Made by a program: the position numbers and the translations under genes
In this document: piece after piece, positions 20,935 to 35,179 of the stretch
Numbering within the stretch: the first letter of the stretch is position 1
Layout of the letters: each line of letters starts with the position of its first letter
Source of the DNA: Gemmatales bacterium
GTDB taxonomy: Bacteria > Planctomycetota > Planctomycetia > Gemmatales > HRBIN36
Reading direction: 5' to 3'
Assembly (NCBI GenBank): GCA_041640595.1
Contig: JBEPZY010000001.1
Coordinates: 416,001-480,000 of the forward strand
DNA length: 64,000 nt
Notes under the pieces: model-generated
Seen by the model: only the letters and a program-made list of their open reading frames with translations
The model's database searches: none
Told to the model about the DNA's origin: nothing

Positions 20935-21246
20935 CTTGGCTTGCGCAGTATCAGTAAACTTTCTATGTTACAAGAATCTTATCAGACCCCTTGCAACCTC
21001 CCTATTTTCCAATAAACCGAGTTTAGCCGGATTAACCGATTGGCCGAAGTTTTCCAAAGGGCGCAGCGTGCGTATTTAGAGTGTAGCTGAACATGGGCAG
21101 TCCAGAAGCGATCGGCCGCGTTCTTGACGCTGCCCGGCCGGTCCTCCAAAGCATTCGGTCTGCTGCATCTCCCCGACCTTGCTGAGCACAGCGCGAAATT
21201 GGCGCTTGGGTCTTCAGGACTCGCATCTATCAAAGGAGGTCCGCAC

Positions 21247-21948
21247 ATGTCTGCTCTTAGGAACGCTTTTCTGCGCGTAGAACGGCTGGAAGACCGTGAC
21301 TTGCCCGCAGGCACGGTCACAGCGGCTTTTGCCGCAGGCACCCTTACCCTGACCGGGGATGCGCAAGCCAACAACCTGGAAGTGCGCATCGACAACGGCA
21401 ACGTTACGCTCAAAGGTAAAGGTACGACCATCGCCGGCGGAACTAGCTTCGCTGGCGTCAATGACATTGTCATTAATCTTGGCGACGGCAACGACCGCGT
21501 AACCGTTCGCGGACGCACCTTGGCCGGCAACCTCACTATCGATCTCGGCAACGGCAACGATCATGCTCAGCTCAAGAAGCTTTCGGTTACCGGCAATGTG
21601 TCGGTCACTGGCGGCGCTGGAAATGACCACGTGAAAATCGAAGATCACGTTTTCGTCGGCGGCAACGTTACCGTTACGACCAACGACGGCAACGACCACG
21701 TGGGCATCGAAGAGCTCCACGTAACCGGCACTACCAGCGTGGACACCGGGCTGGGCAACGACAAAGTCGAAATTGAAGAAAGTCAATTCAGCGGTGCCGC
21801 CACGATTCTACTGGGCGACGGCAATGACCGTATCAAGCTGGAAGATGTCAGCTTCGCCGTGGCCAGCACTGTGGATGGCGGTAACGGCACGGACAAGCTC
21901 AAACGAGAAGACGTGTCCGGCCCTGTCAATTACCTTAACTTCCCGTAA
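21247..21948 (+). CDS. Extracellular beta-helix repeat protein with planctomycete LEDR N-terminal motif
   Basis: LRVERLEDR; seven G(N/T)D repeats about 22 aa apart; AAAGGAGG RBS before ATG 21247. Confidence 0.85.
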   Translation: MSALRNAFLRVERLEDRDLPAGTVTAAFAAGTLTLTGDAQANNLEVRIDNGNVTLKGKGTTIAGGTSFAGVNDIVINLGDGNDRVTVRGRTLAGNLTIDLGNGNDHAQLKKLSVTGNVSVTGGAGNDHVKIEDHVFVGGNVTVTTNDGNDHVGIEELHVTGTTSVDTGLGNDKVEIEESQFSGAATILLGDGNDRIKLEDVSFAVASTVDGGNGTDKLKREDVSGPVNYLNFP

Positions 21949-22016
21949 CCCGCTATAGGCGGCCGGCTTCCGAAACGACCACTACCATGGGCTGTGGCGC
22001 CAGTGCGGGGATGCGC

Positions 22017-22544
22017 TTAGCTGCTTGATGTACCCCCTTGGCGCCTCAGCCAAAGCTGCTGGATCTTTTCTTGCAAAGCCAGGATCGTGCTCAGTGAACG
22101 CGCGTAAAGTCGTAGCGCTCGTGTGCCCGCGCTGCATAGCTGCTGCGACAAATTCGCCAACCATTCTCCTAATGGCATAACTTCTTCGTCGGGCTCTAAA
22201 GGCACCAGACCTTTTGGCAACAGCACTTCGCTGACGCGCGGCTGGCCGCTCAGGCCGACCAATTTTGGCACGCGCGTGTGGCACATATCGAGATAAACCG
22301 GCTCTAAGTCATGACGAATGCGTGTAAATAACTCGACCACCGAACCACCGTGCGCCCGTACGAAGTCCGGGTCCGCTTTCATCACTTCCTCGACCACTTC
22401 AATCATAGCTGCCCACTGCCTGAGTCCTCCCGCCCATTGCTCTACGCGGCGCATCCAGCGATAATAGTCGAGCAAGCTATCCTGAGCCTGGCGACTCAGT
22501 TGCCCTGCCATCGCATAATGGTACTGGAACGTTAGCTTGTCCAC
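22017..22544 (-). CDS. Hypothetical helical protein downstream of Lon-CARF
   Basis: 175-aa ORF, co-oriented, 48 bp after the Lon-CARF stop. Confidence 0.65.
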   Translation of the reverse strand: MDKLTFQYHYAMAGQLSRQAQDSLLDYYRWMRRVEQWAGGLRQWAAMIEVVEEVMKADPDFVRAHGGSVVELFTRIRHDLEPVYLDMCHTRVPKLVGLSGQPRVSEVLLPKGLVPLEPDEEVMPLGEWLANLSQQLCSAGTRALRLYARSLSTILALQEKIQQLWLRRQGGTSSS

Positions 22545-22592
22545 CTGCTTCAGCGACTAAGTGCCTATGTTTTTCAAACCCATCTCTCGTTA

Positions 22593-23972
22593 CTAGGGAC
22601 GTCGCTGGTTATAAAGTATCCATTGTTCTGTAAAGGGCACGACCATCTGCCTCTTGCGTTCGTGCCGCAAGTACAGGAGTCGGTGTTCCGGCTGCGCCAC
22701 TCGCAGCGCCAGAGTCAGGGTCATTTCCTTAGTGCCTGGCGTGAGATCAAGCCCGACCAACTCGGCAGGCACACCCTGGACAAACGTGTGGACTTCCCGT
22801 TCTAACTCTCGCAACAATTCATCCGTGCTTTTATAAATCTTCCAGATAACCTCGCAGGGCCTTTGTGCCGATGCTCGCATCTCTTCTAGTTCGCGCATTG
22901 CAGCTCGCTTATCACTGGTTGCCAGTACCAGGCATCGGCTTGCTCCGATGCTTTCAATGGCGATGTGAACTAACTCCGGATTATCGCTTAATATGGTAAC
23001 CAGGTGGGAAATGGTCCCATTCTTTTCCTGCCATTGCTGCCGGAGCCGTTCGATAACTCGGGGGAGTAATTGCTGGCGATAGTATTGCTTAGCACGATCG
23101 GTATTCCGACTATAGAGCCGCTCGTAATAGGCTTGCAAGTATTTTATCGGACCGTCTGGCGGAGGCGGCACTTCCAGTTCTAATAAGCACGGGCGCAATG
23201 CTTCCACCGGATCAGATTTGCCCTGCGGCAAGCCTTGAATGGTAAGCAGCGATTGCTCCGGCAACAATTGCCTGGCGTATTCGATTTGACTTTCGGGTAC
23301 AAAGAAAATCTTAACGCCACTCTGTGGCAAACTGGCCGCTCGGAGTTTTTCTTCGAGACAACCGACTGCATCTATACCGCTGCCGTCGTTCCATTCGGCG
23401 GTGATCCATACGTCATGTCGTAGGGAAGGTGCATTGTTTTCCTGAGTCTGGCGTATCTGTTCCGCAGCAATTAGGCTCGCACATAACCAACCCCAACCGG
23501 AACTCGGCGATAACTGTAATTCGGCAGCGAGTGCATGCAGAAAGTCTTGGTCGCTGATGCGCACCGCCAGTTGCAATCCCCATCGCGAAAAATCCGAATT
23601 GTTCCTGAAATCATCGGACGGAACGTGAACGAGTTTTTGACGGATATTTTCTGCGAGTTGTCGCACACGGTCGGGCAACCGCGAGTCGTCGGCCTTTCCC
23701 CAGGCCCACTGCAGAGGTAGCAGGAATGCTTCCCGAAGCGTGGGAAACTGACGGGTATCAGTCAAAGCGTACAAAATGGCACAACCGTTAGGGCGGGGTT
23801 CTAAACTCCAGCGCGCGGACCTTACTAAGTCACCACTCGCTTTTGCTAACACCTCCGGGCGCAACCACCAGTAAGCTAGGTCTCCCAATCGGTGAGTTAG
23901 CCACAGGCATTCGTGTTGCGTCAACTCATCAGGAGGCTTCCTGAGCCGATGGAGAATCAGTTCCTGACTCAT
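22593..23972 (-). CDS. Lon-type (S16-like Ser-Lys) protease fused to a C-terminal CARF domain
   Basis: PSSG (S157/S158)..DVWITAE..IDAVGCLEEKLRAA (K209)..GVKIFFVP; then HLVTILSDNPE..CLVLATS..LDLTPGTKEMT..LLYL; GGAGG RBS. Confidence 0.82.
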   Translation of the reverse strand: MSQELILHRLRKPPDELTQHECLWLTHRLGDLAYWWLRPEVLAKASGDLVRSARWSLEPRPNGCAILYALTDTRQFPTLREAFLLPLQWAWGKADDSRLPDRVRQLAENIRQKLVHVPSDDFRNNSDFSRWGLQLAVRISDQDFLHALAAELQLSPSSGWGWLCASLIAAEQIRQTQENNAPSLRHDVWITAEWNDGSGIDAVGCLEEKLRAASLPQSGVKIFFVPESQIEYARQLLPEQSLLTIQGLPQGKSDPVEALRPCLLELEVPPPPDGPIKYLQAYYERLYSRNTDRAKQYYRQQLLPRVIERLRQQWQEKNGTISHLVTILSDNPELVHIAIESIGASRCLVLATSDKRAAMRELEEMRASAQRPCEVIWKIYKSTDELLRELEREVHTFVQGVPAELVGLDLTPGTKEMTLTLALRVAQPEHRLLYLRHERKRQMVVPFTEQWILYNQRRP

Positions 23973-25095
23973 GGTGCAATGCCTCCACTAAGTCGGGTGG
24001 AATTGATTGTAAATCTGCCTCCCAGACCTCGCGCGAACTGCCCACAGCCAAACAAGGGGGCTTACCAGATTCGAGCGCCTGCAAGAGACCATCGCTCGGA
24101 AACCAGGCTTTGCCCTCGGCGCTGATCTTGCTTTCTAAGTCGGCTAACCAAACCGGTTGATTGCTTAAGCCCAGCGCCGGTTCGCCTGCTCTGGTCATAA
24201 ATACTATTTCAATTTGTTCCGGCCTTTTATCCTGAACGAGCACGCAATGGGCCTCGTACTGGCGATCGGGCGAAACCCAGCGAATGATAACTGGTTGCCC
24301 CGCTGGCGCAGCAGCTACCCGGGCGCGCAACGTCATCAGCAAGAGTAGTTTCAGAGCCGCTAATTGGCGCTCCTCCTTATCGGTAACTGCCCGGGCTACT
24401 GCTTGCCAGATTCCAGCCGACGGCATCCGCTTCAGCGCTTCCTGCATGGATACCTGCGCTACTTCCGACAGTAACCCGCTCAGCCACCACGGCATCAGCC
24501 CCTGATGATCCTGGGTCAAAAGAATTCGCCAGTTTTCAATCAACGGGAGGTGCGCCACGGTGCTGAGGATTTCTAAGTTTTCAGATTGCTGCAATGCCGT
24601 GTCCAACTGCTCTACTTTTTCGGTTAATGCCTGCAACGAGCTATCGTATTCCTGCCACGAAATTTCCTGGTCACCATACGCCTCTAACAAGGCCTCATCC
24701 ACGGCAATATAAGCGGCGTGAATGTCCATCCGATCCAGGAGTAAACGAACGCACAACTCATCGCGCTCTATGGGTTCATCGGTGCTGTCCCAATCATGTG
24801 CGAGGGTTTGGGCACGTTTGGCAGCATCGTCAATTAAGGCATGCAGGGCGGTCATTGCCGCCTTAGCTATAGGTAAGGGCAGGGCGCCGTCCTCATCGCC
24901 CAGGTCCGCGCCGAACAACCGGCAATAACCTAGCGCAATGGCCGCTCGTAACGCCGATGCTTGATGTGCCGGCGTCAGCGGAACCCCGGCCAGTATTTCA
25001 TGGAGTTCCTGCTGCGCCAGGATTTCGTTCAGCTCCTGAACGTAGATAGCCAGCACATCATTATTGCGAGCGAAAATTTCCGTGGTCATAATCAT
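23929..25095 (-). CDS. Hypothetical 388-aa protein (helical N-domain, beta-rich C-domain); candidate protease substrate or anti-sigma
   Basis: Start placed at ATG 25095 or 25089 behind AAGGGA; overlaps the Lon-CARF start. Confidence 0.75.
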   Translation of the reverse strand: MIMTTEIFARNNDVLAIYVQELNEILAQQELHEILAGVPLTPAHQASALRAAIALGYCRLFGADLGDEDGALPLPIAKAAMTALHALIDDAAKRAQTLAHDWDSTDEPIERDELCVRLLLDRMDIHAAYIAVDEALLEAYGDQEISWQEYDSSLQALTEKVEQLDTALQQSENLEILSTVAHLPLIENWRILLTQDHQGLMPWWLSGLLSEVAQVSMQEALKRMPSAGIWQAVARAVTDKEERQLAALKLLLLMTLRARVAAAPAGQPVIIRWVSPDRQYEAHCVLVQDKRPEQIEIVFMTRAGEPALGLSNQPVWLADLESKISAEGKAWFPSDGLLQALESGKPPCLAVGSSREVWEADLQSIPPDLVEALHHESGTDSPSAQEAS

Positions 25096-25126
25096 GTCCC
25101 TTACTAATTGCGTAATTTTGGCGACA

Positions 25127-25867
25127 TTACTTCGTCGTGGTCGAATGTTTGCCGTTTTCCGAATCTTCCAACGGGTCGGGCAACGTCCATCGCCGTTGCC
25201 TGAGTTTAATACGCGGCCGCCTGGTCGTCGGTGACAACATTTCCGCGGCTGGCCATTCGGGCAGCGCGCCCCGCCACACTGGAAGAGGAGCACTCGTGTC
25301 GAAGCCCCAGTTCTCCGGTTGCACGAAGCGGATTTTTTCATCCGTCGGCATAAAAAAGCGCCTGGCTCCACCTTGTTCCCTAATGGGAGCGTAACGCCAA
25401 ATATAGGTGTGAGCAACATGACGCCACCGACGATGCGGCGGGTGAAGATTAGGGCGGTCGGGATAATAGCAGGTTACCAGATGTGCCCGGCTATCGTCGT
25501 ATTTGGACTTGAGCACGAAAATGGCCCCAGTAGGCAGAATAGCTATCCAGGCATGACGGCTTAATCCAATCCGTTGCAGTAATACCAACGGACGATTCAG
25601 CGATTCGCGCAGTGCCCCACCGAATAACTGCTCCAGTCGCCCCAGGGTCTCATCGTTTAAGTCTGACTCGCCGTGGTACCATTGGACTAAGCGGTCGCAA
25701 AGCTCCTGCGTCAGCCATTCGGCCCACGGTCCATCGCATCGAGAGATGTGGCGCTGAACAATATGGGCCAGGCATTGCTGCAATAGGATCACCGTACAGC
25801 GCTTGCCGCGTGGGGCATCTGGATCACGGGGATCAGGTAGCTTGTCCCATATCAGGAAGATCGCCAT
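25127..25867 (-). CDS. Hypothetical 246-aa protein with BECR/RelE-like motifs
   Basis: HIVQRH near the N-terminus and beta-rich ..HLVTCYY; GGGAG RBS; overlaps the sigma stop. Confidence 0.65.
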   Translation of the reverse strand: MAIFLIWDKLPDPRDPDAPRGKRCTVILLQQCLAHIVQRHISRCDGPWAEWLTQELCDRLVQWYHGESDLNDETLGRLEQLFGGALRESLNRPLVLLQRIGLSRHAWIAILPTGAIFVLKSKYDDSRAHLVTCYYPDRPNLHPPHRRWRHVAHTYIWRYAPIREQGGARRFFMPTDEKIRFVQPENWGFDTSAPLPVWRGALPEWPAAEMLSPTTRRPRIKLRQRRWTLPDPLEDSENGKHSTTTK

Positions 25868-26639
25868 GACCGTGCTCCCTAGCCAGTTCGCGAATGCAGC
25901 GGAGTTTCATTAGCCATTCGAGACGCCGTTTCCATATCACACATAAATGATTCTCGGTCAGCCCGGTCACCTCGGCTAACACTTTGAGGCGCTCTTGCTT
26001 ATTGTCTAAGCTTAACATTGCAGCTGGTGGAAACGGCCAGGGCCACCCCACTTCTAAAACCCATTGCTTCCACGTGTTTTCCGGTATCTTACACCATAAG
26101 CCGGAAAGCACCAGCATAATGATGCGATCGCGCAGAGGTCGCCAACTGGACACCCGGCTCAAGTCCTCCTCACAAAAGGGAAGTTGGAATAGCGACAACG
26201 CCTTGGGCATAACTGCCACCGACTCACCGCCAAGCCATTCGAGAACGTCAAGGCCCTCGTTCTGGACTCTTTCAGTAACTTGCTGGGATAATCTCAGGTT
26301 GCTTAATGCGGTTGGCCGTCGGCGCTGTTGATCATGAAGAAAGTTGCGGGCGACACGCTTCGCCCAGCCCACAAATCGGCCTCTGTGAGGATCGAATCTT
26401 CCTTGTAATAGTTTCAATATGACGTGTTGTGCCGCATCCTCTGCTAAAGATTCATCGTTGAGATTCATAACCGTCGCAGCCAACTGTCGCCGCGCTATAA
26501 TTGCTACAATCCCTGTCAGTCGCTCGATTGCTTGAGCTCGCAACGTTTCGGGTTGGGTGTTATCAAGGATTAGTGCGACTAACGCTTCCGGGTCAGCATT
26601 TACCAGATCATCAGGGGACGGTGCTTGCGATTCCGGCAT
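25833..26639 (-). CDS. Atypical ECF-like sigma70 factor
   Basis: Region 2 AEDAAQHVILKL..FDPHRGRFVGWAKRVARN..D; region-4-like LAEVTGLTENHL; GGGGAG RBS. Confidence 0.8.
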   Translation of the reverse strand: MPESQAPSPDDLVNADPEALVALILDNTQPETLRAQAIERLTGIVAIIARRQLAATVMNLNDESLAEDAAQHVILKLLQGRFDPHRGRFVGWAKRVARNFLHDQQRRRPTALSNLRLSQQVTERVQNEGLDVLEWLGGESVAVMPKALSLFQLPFCEEDLSRVSSWRPLRDRIIMLVLSGLWCKIPENTWKQWVLEVGWPWPFPPAAMLSLDNKQERLKVLAEVTGLTENHLCVIWKRRLEWLMKLRCIRELAREHGHGDLPDMGQAT

Positions 26640-26879
26640 AAATCAACTCCCCGTGGTGTGAAAGCCACCAGATGCAATTGTTGCCTTAGGTACCGATATT
26701 CCGGATCGCCGTTCGCCCAAGCGGCAAAGCCGTTAGCAGGAGAAACAAGTTCCGCTATCCAATGAAAAAGCGCATCATTGGCTTCGCTATGGACTCGGCA
26801 TGTCGTTGGCAGCCAATGCTTCCGGCCACCCATTGCATGTCGCCGACCACTTATTTGATCGCAGATGCGATAGCGCTGG

Positions 26880-27809
26880 TTAGGCAGCGTATTTTTTCCG
26901 CATGGTATCTATAAAGCGCTTGCAGTCGGCGGTGACCGTCCAGGCGTCCGGCCAGAAGCATAGATCTATGCACCACCAATCCGAGGGAATATTAGCACGC
27001 AGAAGGGCGGGGATTACCTCGTCCCAATTAATCAAGCCCTTGCCGAACGGTGCATGGGTGCTGGTTTCGTCGTTGCCTTGCTCATCTTTGTGACAGGTGC
27101 CGTCGGAATCTATTAGGTGAAGGTGTGTGATCTTTCCCTTGAGTTTTTCGATTAGTTCCAGCACACCGCCTTTAAGGGTTTCCTTTTCACCGGGCTGGCG
27201 TGCTCCAACAACGCTGACCATATAAGCGTGGCTGGTGTCGAACAATACGCCGAAATTCGGATTGCCAAGGCTTCGCACCTCGTCCACTATCGAGACGATT
27301 TCCGAGGGCTTATTGAAAGCGAAGCCAGGCTCAAACTCCCAGGCGACGCGCATGCCCCGATCGGCAGCAATCTTGGCGCATTTATCCCATGCCTTGACGA
27401 TGCGTTCACGGCCGAGGCGTGGATCGAGACCGGTTTTTTGAAAGATATCCGGGGGCTCTAGAGTATCTACGCGAATCAGGTCAATGCCTAAATCTTCTGC
27501 GAACAGCACATTGCGGGCAAATTCGGCTATGTAAGGTCCGCTGTCAGGAACACTGATCACTTTGTGCATCCAGAGGTTGGCGGCCAGCCCGGAAAACTCC
27601 AGTCCATGATCCTGCACTTCCTTGCGCAATGCATGCCGCTTTTTCTGCGTATCGTATTGATCGGGATTAGGGTGCGGCGGAAAACCTCCCAATTCTACGC
27701 CATCAAAACCCATATCTTGCAATTTGTGTAAGACTGTGTGGAAATCAACGGGGTTTGTCTTATAGGGACCAAGCACGTAAGCCCAGCTGCCAATCGAGAT
27801 TTTCTTCAT
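26880..27809 (-). CDS. Sugar-phosphate isomerase/epimerase (TIM barrel)
   Basis: GFDGVEL, WEFEPGF, LFDTSH and HLHLIDSDG. Confidence 0.88.
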   Translation of the reverse strand: MKKISIGSWAYVLGPYKTNPVDFHTVLHKLQDMGFDGVELGGFPPHPNPDQYDTQKKRHALRKEVQDHGLEFSGLAANLWMHKVISVPDSGPYIAEFARNVLFAEDLGIDLIRVDTLEPPDIFQKTGLDPRLGRERIVKAWDKCAKIAADRGMRVAWEFEPGFAFNKPSEIVSIVDEVRSLGNPNFGVLFDTSHAYMVSVVGARQPGEKETLKGGVLELIEKLKGKITHLHLIDSDGTCHKDEQGNDETSTHAPFGKGLINWDEVIPALLRANIPSDWWCIDLCFWPDAWTVTADCKRFIDTMRKKYAA

Positions 27810-33278: not shown

Positions 33279-33715
33279 AAACAGACTCAGGCAGCGCGAA
33301 TGGCACGAAATGATCCGCGACTTGTCGGAATTTGCCAATCCCTGTTTGGTCTTGCACATGGTTAGCATGACGGCAACCCTTACTGAGGCAGGGCGGAAAT
33401 TCGGCGAGCTAGTCAGGATTCATCACTTGGTGGGAAATTCGCTACTACCTCTGGAGCTTCTTAGGTATGGAGACCAAAAGCGGCAAGGTGAAAACGAAAA
33501 CCTTGGAAAGGTCGCTGCTTCGTTTTTATCGTGGCGAGGTTCGCAATGTCAGGCGTAGCACCAGGGCAAATGGTGTCATGAGGAGTGTGAAGTACCTCGT
33601 GTGGATACTTGTCGCCGAGCCTGCAGGTTCATATTTTGCCGCTTAGAAACTGACCCGCCGCTGGATGACGCTGCCGGTAACGGCAGAGCTTCCCACCAAA
33701 AGAAGGAGTGTTGCG

Positions 33716-35179
33716 ATGACGCGTGTCCGACTGTGTGTGGTATGTGGTATCCTGGCGACCCTGCTGGCAGCGTGGCTATTGCTACGTCTGACCAGCGCCA
33801 CTCAGGCTCAGACTAAATCTGCCGGTAAACAGGTGAGTTTCCTGAACGACGTGGCCCCGATTTTGAAGGAAAATTGTTTCGCCTGCCATGATCCGAAAGT
33901 CCGCAAAGGTCGGCTGGACATGACGACTTTCGAAGGCCTGCTGGCAGGCGGTGACCGAGGCCCATCCGTTGTCGCTGGCAAACCCGAGGAAAGTCCACTG
34001 TATTTGCTCATCAGCGGCCAGAAAGAGCCGCACATGCCGCCCAGAGAAACTGGTGGCAGTCTGACGAAAGACCAGATCACCACCATCGAGCTCTGGATTC
34101 GACAGGGAGCCAAGTTCGATGGTCCATCGCCGAAAGCCAATTTGCTGGTCGAACTCCGCAAGCGCTGGAATCCACCAGTGCCGCCAACTCAATACCGCTT
34201 CCCGGCAGTTATCCGCGCTATGACGTTCACGCCCGATGGCAAGCAGTTGGTAGTCGGTGGCTATTTCGAACTGCTCGTCTGGGATGTGGAAAACGGGCAA
34301 CTGGTCAAGCGCATTCGCACGCGTGCCGAACGTGCTAACGCTATGGCGTTCTTGTCCGACGGTAAAACCCTTGCCGTTGCCGGAGGTCGGCCAGGCCAGG
34401 AAGGCGATGTTCGGATTTATAACTTCGCTGCCAGCCCGACGCGGCAGGACGCTGGGATTGCTTATTTGGATGGCGTTGATCCGAAAGCTGGGGTACTGCT
34501 GCGGGAGTTGGTGCAAACCGACGATGAAGTCCTCGCCTTGGCGGTGAGTAAAGACGGGAAACGTCTTGCCGCTGGTGGGTGTGACCGTTTGATCCGCGTC
34601 TGGGAAACTGAAAAGTGGTCACTCGAGCAGACCATCGAAAACCACGCCGATTGGGTGCTCGATTTATGCTTCTCCCCTGACGGCAAATATTTGCTATCCG
34701 CTAGCCGCGATAAGACCGCTAAAGTCTGGGATCTGTCAGCCAAGGAACCGGTCGCCACGTTCCCGGGCCATCAGGAGTACGTCACTGGCGTAACTGTGCA
34801 TCCGAATGGCAAAATGGGCATCAGTTGCGGTCGGGACAGGCAAATCCGGATGTGGAATCTGGCCAGCGACGCCAAGCAAATTCGCACCGCCGGGGGACAC
34901 AGCGACTTTGTCGAGAAGGTACGTTTTCATCCGACAAAACCCCTGATCGTTTCGTGCTCGCTGGACAAGACAGTGCGGTTGTGGAATCCGGATAACGGGG
35001 CGCAAATCCGCTCTCTCGAGGGTCATACCGACGCTGTTTTCGCCATTGCCATTAGCCCTGACGGCAACCGTATCGCCAGCGGTGCCTGGAACGGTGAGGT
35101 ACGCATCTGGAACGTGGATGACGGCAAGCTCGTCAAAAGCTTCATCGCCTCACCCATCGTGGCCACCGCTGGCAAATAG
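33716..35179 (+). CDS. Planctomycete cytochrome-c domain + WD40 repeat protein
   Basis: VSF..DVAPILKENCFACH..MPP..WI.QGA, then multiple GH..WD-like repeats; AAGGAG RBS. Confidence 0.9.
   Translation: MTRVRLCVVCGILATLLAAWLLLRLTSATQAQTKSAGKQVSFLNDVAPILKENCFACHDPKVRKGRLDMTTFEGLLAGGDRGPSVVAGKPEESPLYLLISGQKEPHMPPRETGGSLTKDQITTIELWIRQGAKFDGPSPKANLLVELRKRWNPPVPPTQYRFPAVIRAMTFTPDGKQLVVGGYFELLVWDVENGQLVKRIRTRAERANAMAFLSDGKTLAVAGGRPGQEGDVRIYNFAASPTRQDAGIAYLDGVDPKAGVLLRELVQTDDEVLALAVSKDGKRLAAGGCDRLIRVWETEKWSLEQTIENHADWVLDLCFSPDGKYLLSASRDKTAKVWDLSAKEPVATFPGHQEYVTGVTVHPNGKMGISCGRDRQIRMWNLASDAKQIRTAGGHSDFVEKVRFHPTKPLIVSCSLDKTVRLWNPDNGAQIRSLEGHTDAVFAIAISPDGNRIASGAWNGEVRIWNVDDGKLVKSFIASPIVATAGK

Follow-up and report, generated by a model that had tools for sequence, protein, structure and literature searches.

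A Lon-type protease with a C-terminal CARF domain, encoded with conserved partner genes in a Gemmatales bacterium

We analyzed a 64,000-nucleotide stretch of DNA from a Gemmatales bacterium of the phylum Planctomycetota (NCBI GenBank assembly GCA_041640595.1, contig JBEPZY010000001.1, positions 416,001 to 480,000 of the forward strand; hereafter, the window), which encodes a protein that we call Lon-CARF. Sequence-profile and fold evidence supports its description as a Lon-type Ser-Lys protease that has no AAA+ module and carries a CARF domain at its C-terminal end. The fusion itself is no discovery because this architecture has already been catalogued, and Lon-CARF is an ordinary member of a predicted, never experimentally studied family; its partner context adds the interest. 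The gene is the last of four co-directional, tightly packed genes that encode, in order, a sigma-like protein, two partners that we call X and Y, and Lon-CARF, and these conserved partner genes are more informative than the fusion. In our best explanation, to which we assign a probability of roughly 0.6, the whole chain would be a soluble, ATPase-less protease that is activated by cyclic oligoadenylate (cOA) and works like the CalpL/CalpT/CalpS system, with a CARF sensor and unrelated partners.

An earlier reading of the DNA, made from its letters alone (the original prediction), had placed a Lon-type protease fused to a CARF domain at this gene. All the motifs that it quoted, without naming a strand, are found in the 459-residue minus-strand open reading frame (ORF), which is uninterrupted and in which we verified each motif codon by codon. 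The plus-strand frame over the same positions is riddled with stops, and the other overlapping frames hold ORFs of 60–65 amino acids only. In the PADLOC library, the protein matched PDLC01981, 'CARF_m2--CARF_LON' (E = 1.7e-106, 355 bits), with residues 3–455 covering model positions 3–407 of 408, and 12 further, weaker CARF models matched its C-terminal third; no SAVED model was among its PADLOC matches at E ≤ 0.1. Lon-CARF is thus almost certainly a member of the catalogued CARF_m2/CARF-Lon family, whose domain order it shares (protease N-terminal, CARF C-terminal) and from which the protein itself does not differ. We take the CARF models of PADLOC to go back to the CARF/SAVED classification that Makarova et al. 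published in 2020. No Pfam family, Lon_C included, matched the protein at E ≤ 0.01, and NCBIfam returned just a weak CARF match (TIGR02710, E = 0.0028) well under the cut-off of that model. The absence of an AAA+ module, as originally proposed, agrees with the lack of any match to one in Pfam or NCBIfam and with an AlphaFold2 model in which residues 1–38 form short helices. This model, computed from a 17-row alignment, has a mean predicted local distance difference test (pLDDT) score of 89.6 and a predicted template modeling score of 0.85, and both of the folds expected from the motifs, those of Lon and of the Csm6 CARF domain, were matched by it.

Similarity to Lon was detectable solely by fold and by a family profile searched against the PDB. 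When the Lon segment by itself was searched against the PDB as a single sequence, nothing beyond a chance match (E = 1.4) came up, so the family profile, built from the window protein and 16 homologs (17 rows), was needed; its positions 147–237 matched the proteolytic domain of Archaeoglobus fulgidus Lon (LonB, 1z0e) with E = 7.3e-4. By VIA-align, residues 39–269 of the model superimposed on Lon 6on2_A with Z 16.4 and a root-mean-square deviation (rmsd) of 3.0 over 180 aligned residues, and dozens more Lon entries scored Z 14–16; Foldseek matched Lon proteases with a best E of 6.9e-8, others being weaker. Together with the PADLOC match, these results uphold the parallel to the Lon protease domain that had been drawn from short motifs, among which DVWITAE and GVKIFFVP are present in addition to those around the candidate dyad. 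In the hidden Markov model (HMM) alignment with 1z0e, S158 falls on the Ser of GDSAS and K209 on the Lys of TQKIEAA, which we take to be the catalytic residues of that enzyme. The spacing from Ser to Lys is 51 residues, compared with 43 in the A. fulgidus chain, in keeping with the insertion of about 8 residues noted before. Lon-CARF therefore resembles LonA and LonB (MEROPS S16) in the fold of its proteolytic domain and in a Ser-Lys dyad at aligned positions, but differs from them in lacking the AAA+ module and the LonA N-domain and in its wider Ser-Lys spacing.

Conservation across the family singles out one of the two adjacent serines. Searched exhaustively against 1.84 billion representatives, a profile retrieved 1,015 proteins at E ≤ 1e-3, a number that fell to 674 at E ≤ 1e-10 and to 459 at E ≤ 1e-30; the representatives are clustered at 50% identity, so that the family comprises at least 459 clusters at the strictest of these thresholds. 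Most of the 150 best matches listed are about 440–490 amino acids long; some others are shorter, being fragments, and one fusion is longer. In an alignment of 159 sequences (the window protein, 16 near homologs and 142 representatives), 158 have S158 and 158 have K209, as the original prediction of a dyad would have it, whereas S157, which it had offered as an equal candidate, is variable and is a serine in only 15. Many flanking positions of the Lon core (such as W189, A213, F224 and P226) are conserved as well. S158 is accordingly the candidate nucleophile, and a dead protease appears unlikely from this pattern of residues. We infer that Lon-CARF is probably no processive degrader of proteins but cleaves one particular partner.

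The C-terminal half carries the second fold. By VIA-align, residues 275–459 superimposed on Thermus thermophilus Csm6 bound to cyclic tetra-adenylate (cA4; 8jh1_B) with Z 17.4 and an rmsd of 2.6 over 175 residues at 22% identity, and this part also scored Z 14.2 against the CARF domain of Can2; Csm6 was likewise the best Foldseek match of the whole model (E = 1.6e-8). Profile positions 278–436 matched the CARF domain of T. thermophilus Csm6 (5fsh) with E = 2.1e-5. In the alignment, DLTPGTKEM of Lon-CARF lies on DLTSGTKAM of Csm6, VTILSDNPE is similarly aligned to the corresponding Csm6 motif, and K415 is aligned with the residue that has been replaced by alanine in 8jbc, a PDB entry titled 'K137A'. 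The CARF assignment, which had rested on these two motifs, is thereby borne out by profile and fold. Of the 159 aligned sequences, 149 keep S329, 155 D409, 142 T411, 154 G413 and 137 K415. Lon-CARF thus shares with Csm6 of T. thermophilus (5fsh, 8jh1 and 8jbb) the CARF fold, an N-terminal helical extension and the D-L-T-x-G-T-K motif, whereas the effector of Csm6 is a C-terminal HEPN RNase and that of Lon-CARF is a Lon protease N-terminal to the sensor. By analogy with Csm6, the CARF domain would bind cyclic oligoadenylate, and cA4 is favored because the nearest CARF structures are, by their entry titles, Csm6 complexes with cA4 and with A2>p. Activation of Lon-CARF by cOA is, in our estimate, likely, and ligand-driven activation through a dimer or a higher oligomer is plausible from the likeness to CARF dimers and to CalpL filaments.

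The gene cluster, which the original prediction did not mention, gives this protease its context. Our comparison took in 15 loci: that of the window, 13 in other genomes and that of a second Lon-CARF copy in the source genome (L018). A match to the Y profile adjoins Lon-CARF in 14 of them, the exception (L006) having about 105 nucleotides of contig upstream. Matches to the sigma-like profile occur in 10 of the 15, with L006 and L013 cut off by contig ends, and X is matched in the same position, by tblastn or profile, in six. The gene order differs in L015, where Lon-CARF comes first. For Y, we place the real start at M109 of a 496-residue ORF because relatives match only from there and five homologs of 95–99% identity are called as 388 residues long.

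Pfam recognizes Sigma70_r2 in the first protein of the cluster (E = 2e-8, 34.4 bits against a cut-off of 24), and a profile of seven sigma-like homologs matched the extracytoplasmic function (ECF) sigma factor RpoE (2q1z) in the PDB with E = 4.7e-4, in region 2 only. The first ORFs of L008, L010, L011 and L017 also match Sigma70_r2 above its cut-off, and that of L016 falls slightly short of it. When the sigma profile was compared by hhalign with unrecognized upstream ORFs of L009, L012, L016, L017 and L018, it gave weak region-2 hints (E of about 1e-3 to 8e-5), and the X profile gave nothing against the same ORFs; L009, L016 and L017 hold ORFs of similar size at the X position, without recognizable relation to X. 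X itself has no match in Pfam, NCBIfam, PADLOC or PDB sequences, its eight homologs are all unnamed or 'hypothetical', and an ESM Atlas feature search with it returned sub-threshold matches only (≤0.88). Single-sequence PDB searches with X, Y and the sigma-like protein gave nothing significant. Scans of positions 21800–27000 for promoters and terminators found 5 and 8 sites, no excess over the 3.9 and 5.3 expected from shuffled sequence, and the region upstream of the sigma-like gene, aligned with those of L005 and L007, holds no conserved motif. Some genes of the module are broken in relatives: the sigma-like gene has an internal stop in L007 (1375–2106), Lon-CARF is split in two in L006 (106–1470) on a contig of about 2.6× coverage, and Y is split in two in L011 (6792–7909). 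These could be sequencing errors or decay.

Y is the partner most closely tied to the protease. One homolog, P0041 (853 amino acids), contains a Y homolog at residues 12–374 (BLASTP E = 1e-25) and Lon-CARF at residues 392–834; it may have arisen by fusion in nature, or it may be an artifact of a sequencing frameshift, which could join the two proteins because the Y and Lon-CARF genes overlap at their junction. Complex prediction for Lon-CARF with Y gave ipSAE scores of 0.53, 0.56 and 0.54 in three runs and 0.00 in all three controls, with a partner pLDDT of at least 75 and a contact agreement between runs of at least 57%, which the tool grades as 'weak support'. The mark of this tool is reached by 116 of 157 solved complexes and by 2 of 215 mismatched pairs, and scores of 0.60 or less comprise only 18 of the 157 solved complexes and both mismatches. 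Given the conserved adjacency and the fusion, the modeled binding of Lon-CARF to Y is likely.

The AlphaFold2 model of Y (pLDDT 80.6) consists of a helical N-terminal domain to about residue 256 and a β-rich C-terminal domain at residues 269–361, with pLDDT below 50 at residues 232–239 and 259–265. The second of these segments carries a conserved R-x-A-A-A-P-A motif, in which A261 is invariant in 11 sequences. The authors of the CalpL work argue in their 2021 preprint that the P1 pocket admits small side chains only. By that analogy, we propose the Ala-rich linker around A261 as the predicted cleavage site. Foldseek returned no match to the model at E ≤ 0.001 (best E = 0.039), and the wide VIA search turned up nothing but spectrin-like three-helix bundles with Z ≤ 9.6, under the level of concern of that tool for helical proteins. 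Fold searches therefore gave no fold family for Y, the C-terminal β domain being barely probed by them, and Pfam, NCBIfam, PADLOC, PDB sequences and the Atlas offered no assignment.

The closest working analog of the module is CalpL–CalpT–CalpS. In the parts of the CalpL literature that describe its action, the signal switches the protease on, the partner is cut and a sigma factor is freed, through an anti-sigma/sigma pair (CalpT/CalpS). Lon-CARF resembles CalpL in being a Lon protease with no AAA+ module, in having a C-terminal cyclic-nucleotide sensor and in being encoded with sigma-like and small partner proteins. The original prediction was right to place the CARF domain C-terminal to the protease but not in treating this placement as odd, as the SAVED sensor of CalpL, from what excerpts of those reports describe, likewise sits C-terminal to Lon. 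The differences are several. The sensor of CalpL is a SAVED pseudo-dimer, whereas that of Lon-CARF is a single CARF domain, so a homodimer would probably be needed to form the ligand site; the six-helix bundle of CalpL is replaced by about 40–55 residues of short helices before the Lon fold; two partners, X and Y, stand where the CalpL system has one, and neither is detectably related to CalpT; and the window locus lies far from cas genes. No chain named CalpL is among the 38 PDB profile matches at E ≤ 1 or the best 50 VIA rows, a result that still permits a fold similarity in the Lon part.

A naming point bears on the literature. Excerpts of CRISPR surveys refer to an earlier 'Lon-CARF', which is CalpL, and its sensor proved to be SAVED. 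A 2022 review calls CARF-Lon fusions 'bioinformatically predicted' and goes no further than speculation about their function (PMC9704534). Full-text literature searches turned up no experiments on a true CARF-Lon protein and no account of the sigma-like, X and Y proteins that accompany it; the CARF classification of 2020, supplements included, may go further on both.

A source for the proposed signal is present elsewhere in the genome. The assembly (95% complete, 42 contigs) holds two type III loci, and both of their Cas10 proteins (Cmr2 and Csm1) bear the GGDD cyclase motif. Lon-CARF is not the sole candidate sensor of cyclic nucleotides in this genome because a Cas_APE2256-type CARF protein is encoded on contig 7 (75474–75875, within a 395-residue ORF; E = 1.4e-33) and a SAVED-domain ORF on contig 6 (78404–78760; E = 5.5e-10). 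The genome gave no Csx1- or Csm6-type HEPN match, which is uninformative, as the Csm6 model was silent in control genomes too. The second Lon-CARF copy has a Y-like ORF of 456 residues upstream and no recognizable X gene, and the relatives in L009 and L016 also match the PADLOC CARF_m2--CARF_LON model.

Physical linkage to type III cas genes occurs in a single one of the sampled loci, L009, in which Lon-CARF is followed directly by a RAMP gene and a short Cas10 gene (524 amino acids; palm2 E = 1.1e-26, Csm1_B), both within L009:9340–11432. We counted Cas10 at E ≤ 1e-25 only; at a loose threshold the palm model matches Escherichia coli, where it is silent at E ≤ 1e-25. By this count, 9 of 13 genomes with a Lon-CARF relative have a strong Cas10, compared with 25 of 300 sampled genomes of the phylum, figures that come from related, often incomplete genomes and are therefore indicative rather than statistical.

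Under the CalpL-like reading, cyclic oligoadenylate, most likely cA4, would be made in trans by the type III-A and/or type III-B complexes of the genome. The protease would rest bound to Y. Binding of the ligand to CARF, probably across a CARF dimer or a higher oligomer, would switch the protease on, and the activated enzyme (S158/K209) would then cut Y; a plausible place for the cut is the disordered linker around A261, which is conserved and rich in Ala. Cleavage of Y may in turn free the sigma-70-region-2-like protein and so redirect transcription; this sigma-release step is the tentative part of the scheme, and we lean slightly against it. A bolder version, in which the module is a distinct, undescribed four-component system, seems to us rather unlikely. 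There, a Lon protease gated by a CARF dimer and bound in advance to Y, a protein of new fold, would cut the linker and release a minimal sigma-like factor, acting in trans at a distance of hundreds of kilobases from the CRISPR loci.

Several observations weigh against the CalpL-like reading. The 64-kb window contains no cas gene (Pfam, NCBIfam) and no CRISPR array, nor is there any notable direct repeat near Lon-CARF; the two clear Cas10 genes of the source genome lie on contigs other than that of Lon-CARF. The Lon-CARF profile matches in 4 of the 300 phylum-sample genomes, none of which has a strong Cas10; two of these four matches end before CARF, and two of the genomes are 75–79% complete. 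Four of the 13 genomes of relatives, including the closest (L005, L006 and L007), have weak Cas10-palm matches of 26–67 bits, and these could be GGDEF proteins, given that the palm model rang in E. coli at the loose threshold. On the side of the output, region 4 was undetected in the sigma-like protein by Pfam and by the seven-homolog profile against the PDB; the sigma-like gene is unrecognized in L009, L012 and the second copy of the source genome; and neither X nor Y has detected similarity to CalpT or to any anti-sigma factor (in the PDB and the Atlas, and for Y also by fold).

There are three other explanations, of which two concern what lies downstream or upstream of the protease. The output could be toxic rather than transcriptional, with a cOA-activated Lon-CARF freeing a toxic fragment of Y or X or degrading host proteins broadly, leading to dormancy or abortive infection, and with the sigma-like protein merely regulating the operon. 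A passage of the 2022 review (PMC9704534) speculates exactly so for CARF-Lon; Y is the universal partner (14 of 15 loci, with the sigma-like protein detected in 10), X and Y have no recognizable function, and the feature search with X gave faint leads to PBECR of the nuclease type (0.80–0.81), under the usable level of that tool. However, the sigma-like gene, where recognizable, is co-directional and tightly packed with the others and overlaps X by 35 nucleotides, the characterized Lon relative CalpL uses an anti-sigma/sigma pair in the accounts excerpted from its literature, and neither Foldseek nor VIA found a toxin or nuclease fold for Y. We regard a toxic output as unlikely. A ligand from outside CRISPR, such as 2',3'-cyclic phosphate RNA ends or a nucleotide signal unrelated to CRISPR, is less probable still; Lon-CARF would then belong to a stand-alone protease–sigma circuit for stress signaling in Planctomycetota. 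Conserved chromosomal synteny, with a TIM-barrel gene and other flanking genes also present in L005 and L007, speaks for such a circuit, as do a G+C content at the locus that resembles its flanks with no sign of an island, the lack of cas genes nearby, and the lack of strong Cas10 matches in the four phylum-sample genomes and in those of the three closest relatives. Against these stand the RAMP and Cas10 genes directly downstream in L009, the indicative enrichment of strong Cas10 in genomes with a relative (9/13 against 25/300), and a source genome with two cyclase-competent Cas10 proteins, together with nearest CARF structures that come from cA4-binding Csm6.

The remaining explanation concerns the protease itself: the Lon-like domain could be a catalytically dead scaffold, and the protein a cOA binder, a ring nuclease acting as a signal sponge, or an adaptor. 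Csm6 of T. thermophilus, the closest CARF homolog, was crystallized with the cA4 cleavage product A2>p, according to the entry title, and the failure of every Pfam model, Lon_C included, to match at E ≤ 0.01 would also fit. Near-invariant S158 and K209, accompanied by many flanking Lon-core positions such as W189, A213, F224 and P226, are nonetheless hard to explain without catalysis, and we consider a dead scaffold highly improbable.

If the CalpL-like reading is correct, the Lon-CARF family would be a second, independently built version of protease-to-sigma signaling, with CARF in place of SAVED and with different partners. CalpL, in the reports consulted, is the Lon-type example of a CRISPR signal that is relayed by proteolysis to a sigma factor and not by a nuclease. 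A second case would bear on whether protease-to-sigma signaling is a general output of type III CRISPR systems, on the way in which a symmetric CARF dimer would activate a Lon protease, and on whether accessory effectors can act from loci far from cas genes, where locus-based surveys miss them. A ligand-gated, sequence-specific protease could also be a possible tool.

Table 1. Positions of Lon-CARF, its candidate functional residues, its partner genes and related loci of the source genome. Coordinates are those of the window unless a contig is named.
Feature	Position	Strand	Details and basis
Lon-CARF gene (P0001)	22593..23972	minus	459 aa, ATG start, TAG stop; ORF list and translation
Lon-type proteolytic domain, residues ~39-269	23166..23858	minus	VIA-align, Foldseek, HMM alignment, conservation
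Candidate dyad serine S158	23499-23501	minus	motif SPSSG (S157, S158)
Candidate dyad lysine K209	23346-23348	minus	motif VGCLEEKLRAA
Helical linker and CARF domain, residues 275-459	22596..23150	minus	VIA-align, PDB profile, HMM alignment
CARF beta1 loop VTILSDNPE, residues 325-333	22974-23000	minus	codon check
CARF motif DLTPGTK, residues 409-415	22728-22748	minus	codon check
Partner Y, 388 aa	23929..25095	minus	overlaps Lon-CARF start by 44 nt
Partner X, 246 aa	25127..25867	minus	35-nt overlap with sigma-like gene
Sigma-70 region-2-like (ECF-like) protein, 268 aa	25833..26639	minus	first gene of cluster
Remnant ORF, 175 aa	22017..22544	minus	C-terminal part of the M48-peptidase-domain protein of relatives
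Type III-B locus	contig 8		Cmr1, Cas10/Cmr2, Cmr3, Cmr4, Cmr5, Cmr6
Type III-A fragment	contig 23		Cas10/Csm1, Csm2, Csm3
Second Lon-CARF copy	contig 5, 103010-104320 (L018:9011-10324)	plus	29% identity; PADLOC CARF_m2--CARF_LON E 1.5e-114

Downstream of the module, the window and its relatives differ in one gene. A Peptidase_M48 protein of 729–741 residues (Pfam E = 4e-11) follows Lon-CARF in the two closest relatives, L005 (9433–11658) and L007 (5417–7606). In tblastn searches with these proteins, only residues 556–740 match the window, at 22035–22586 (about 172–174 amino acids), abutting the Lon-CARF stop codon. It looks as though a deletion of about 1.7 kb in the window removed the M48 peptidase domain.

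Two further genes of the window lie outside the module. An ORF of 274 residues at 21124–21948 (plus strand) is made of repeated 'GxGNDxV' units, encoded by DNA repeats with a spacing of about 66 nucleotides; it has no Pfam or NCBIfam match, and L005 and L007 conserve it, likewise downstream of the module. Farther away, at 33665–35179 (plus strand), lies the gene for a WD40 β-propeller protein that bears a Planctomycete cytochrome C domain (PSCyt1) at its N-terminal end.

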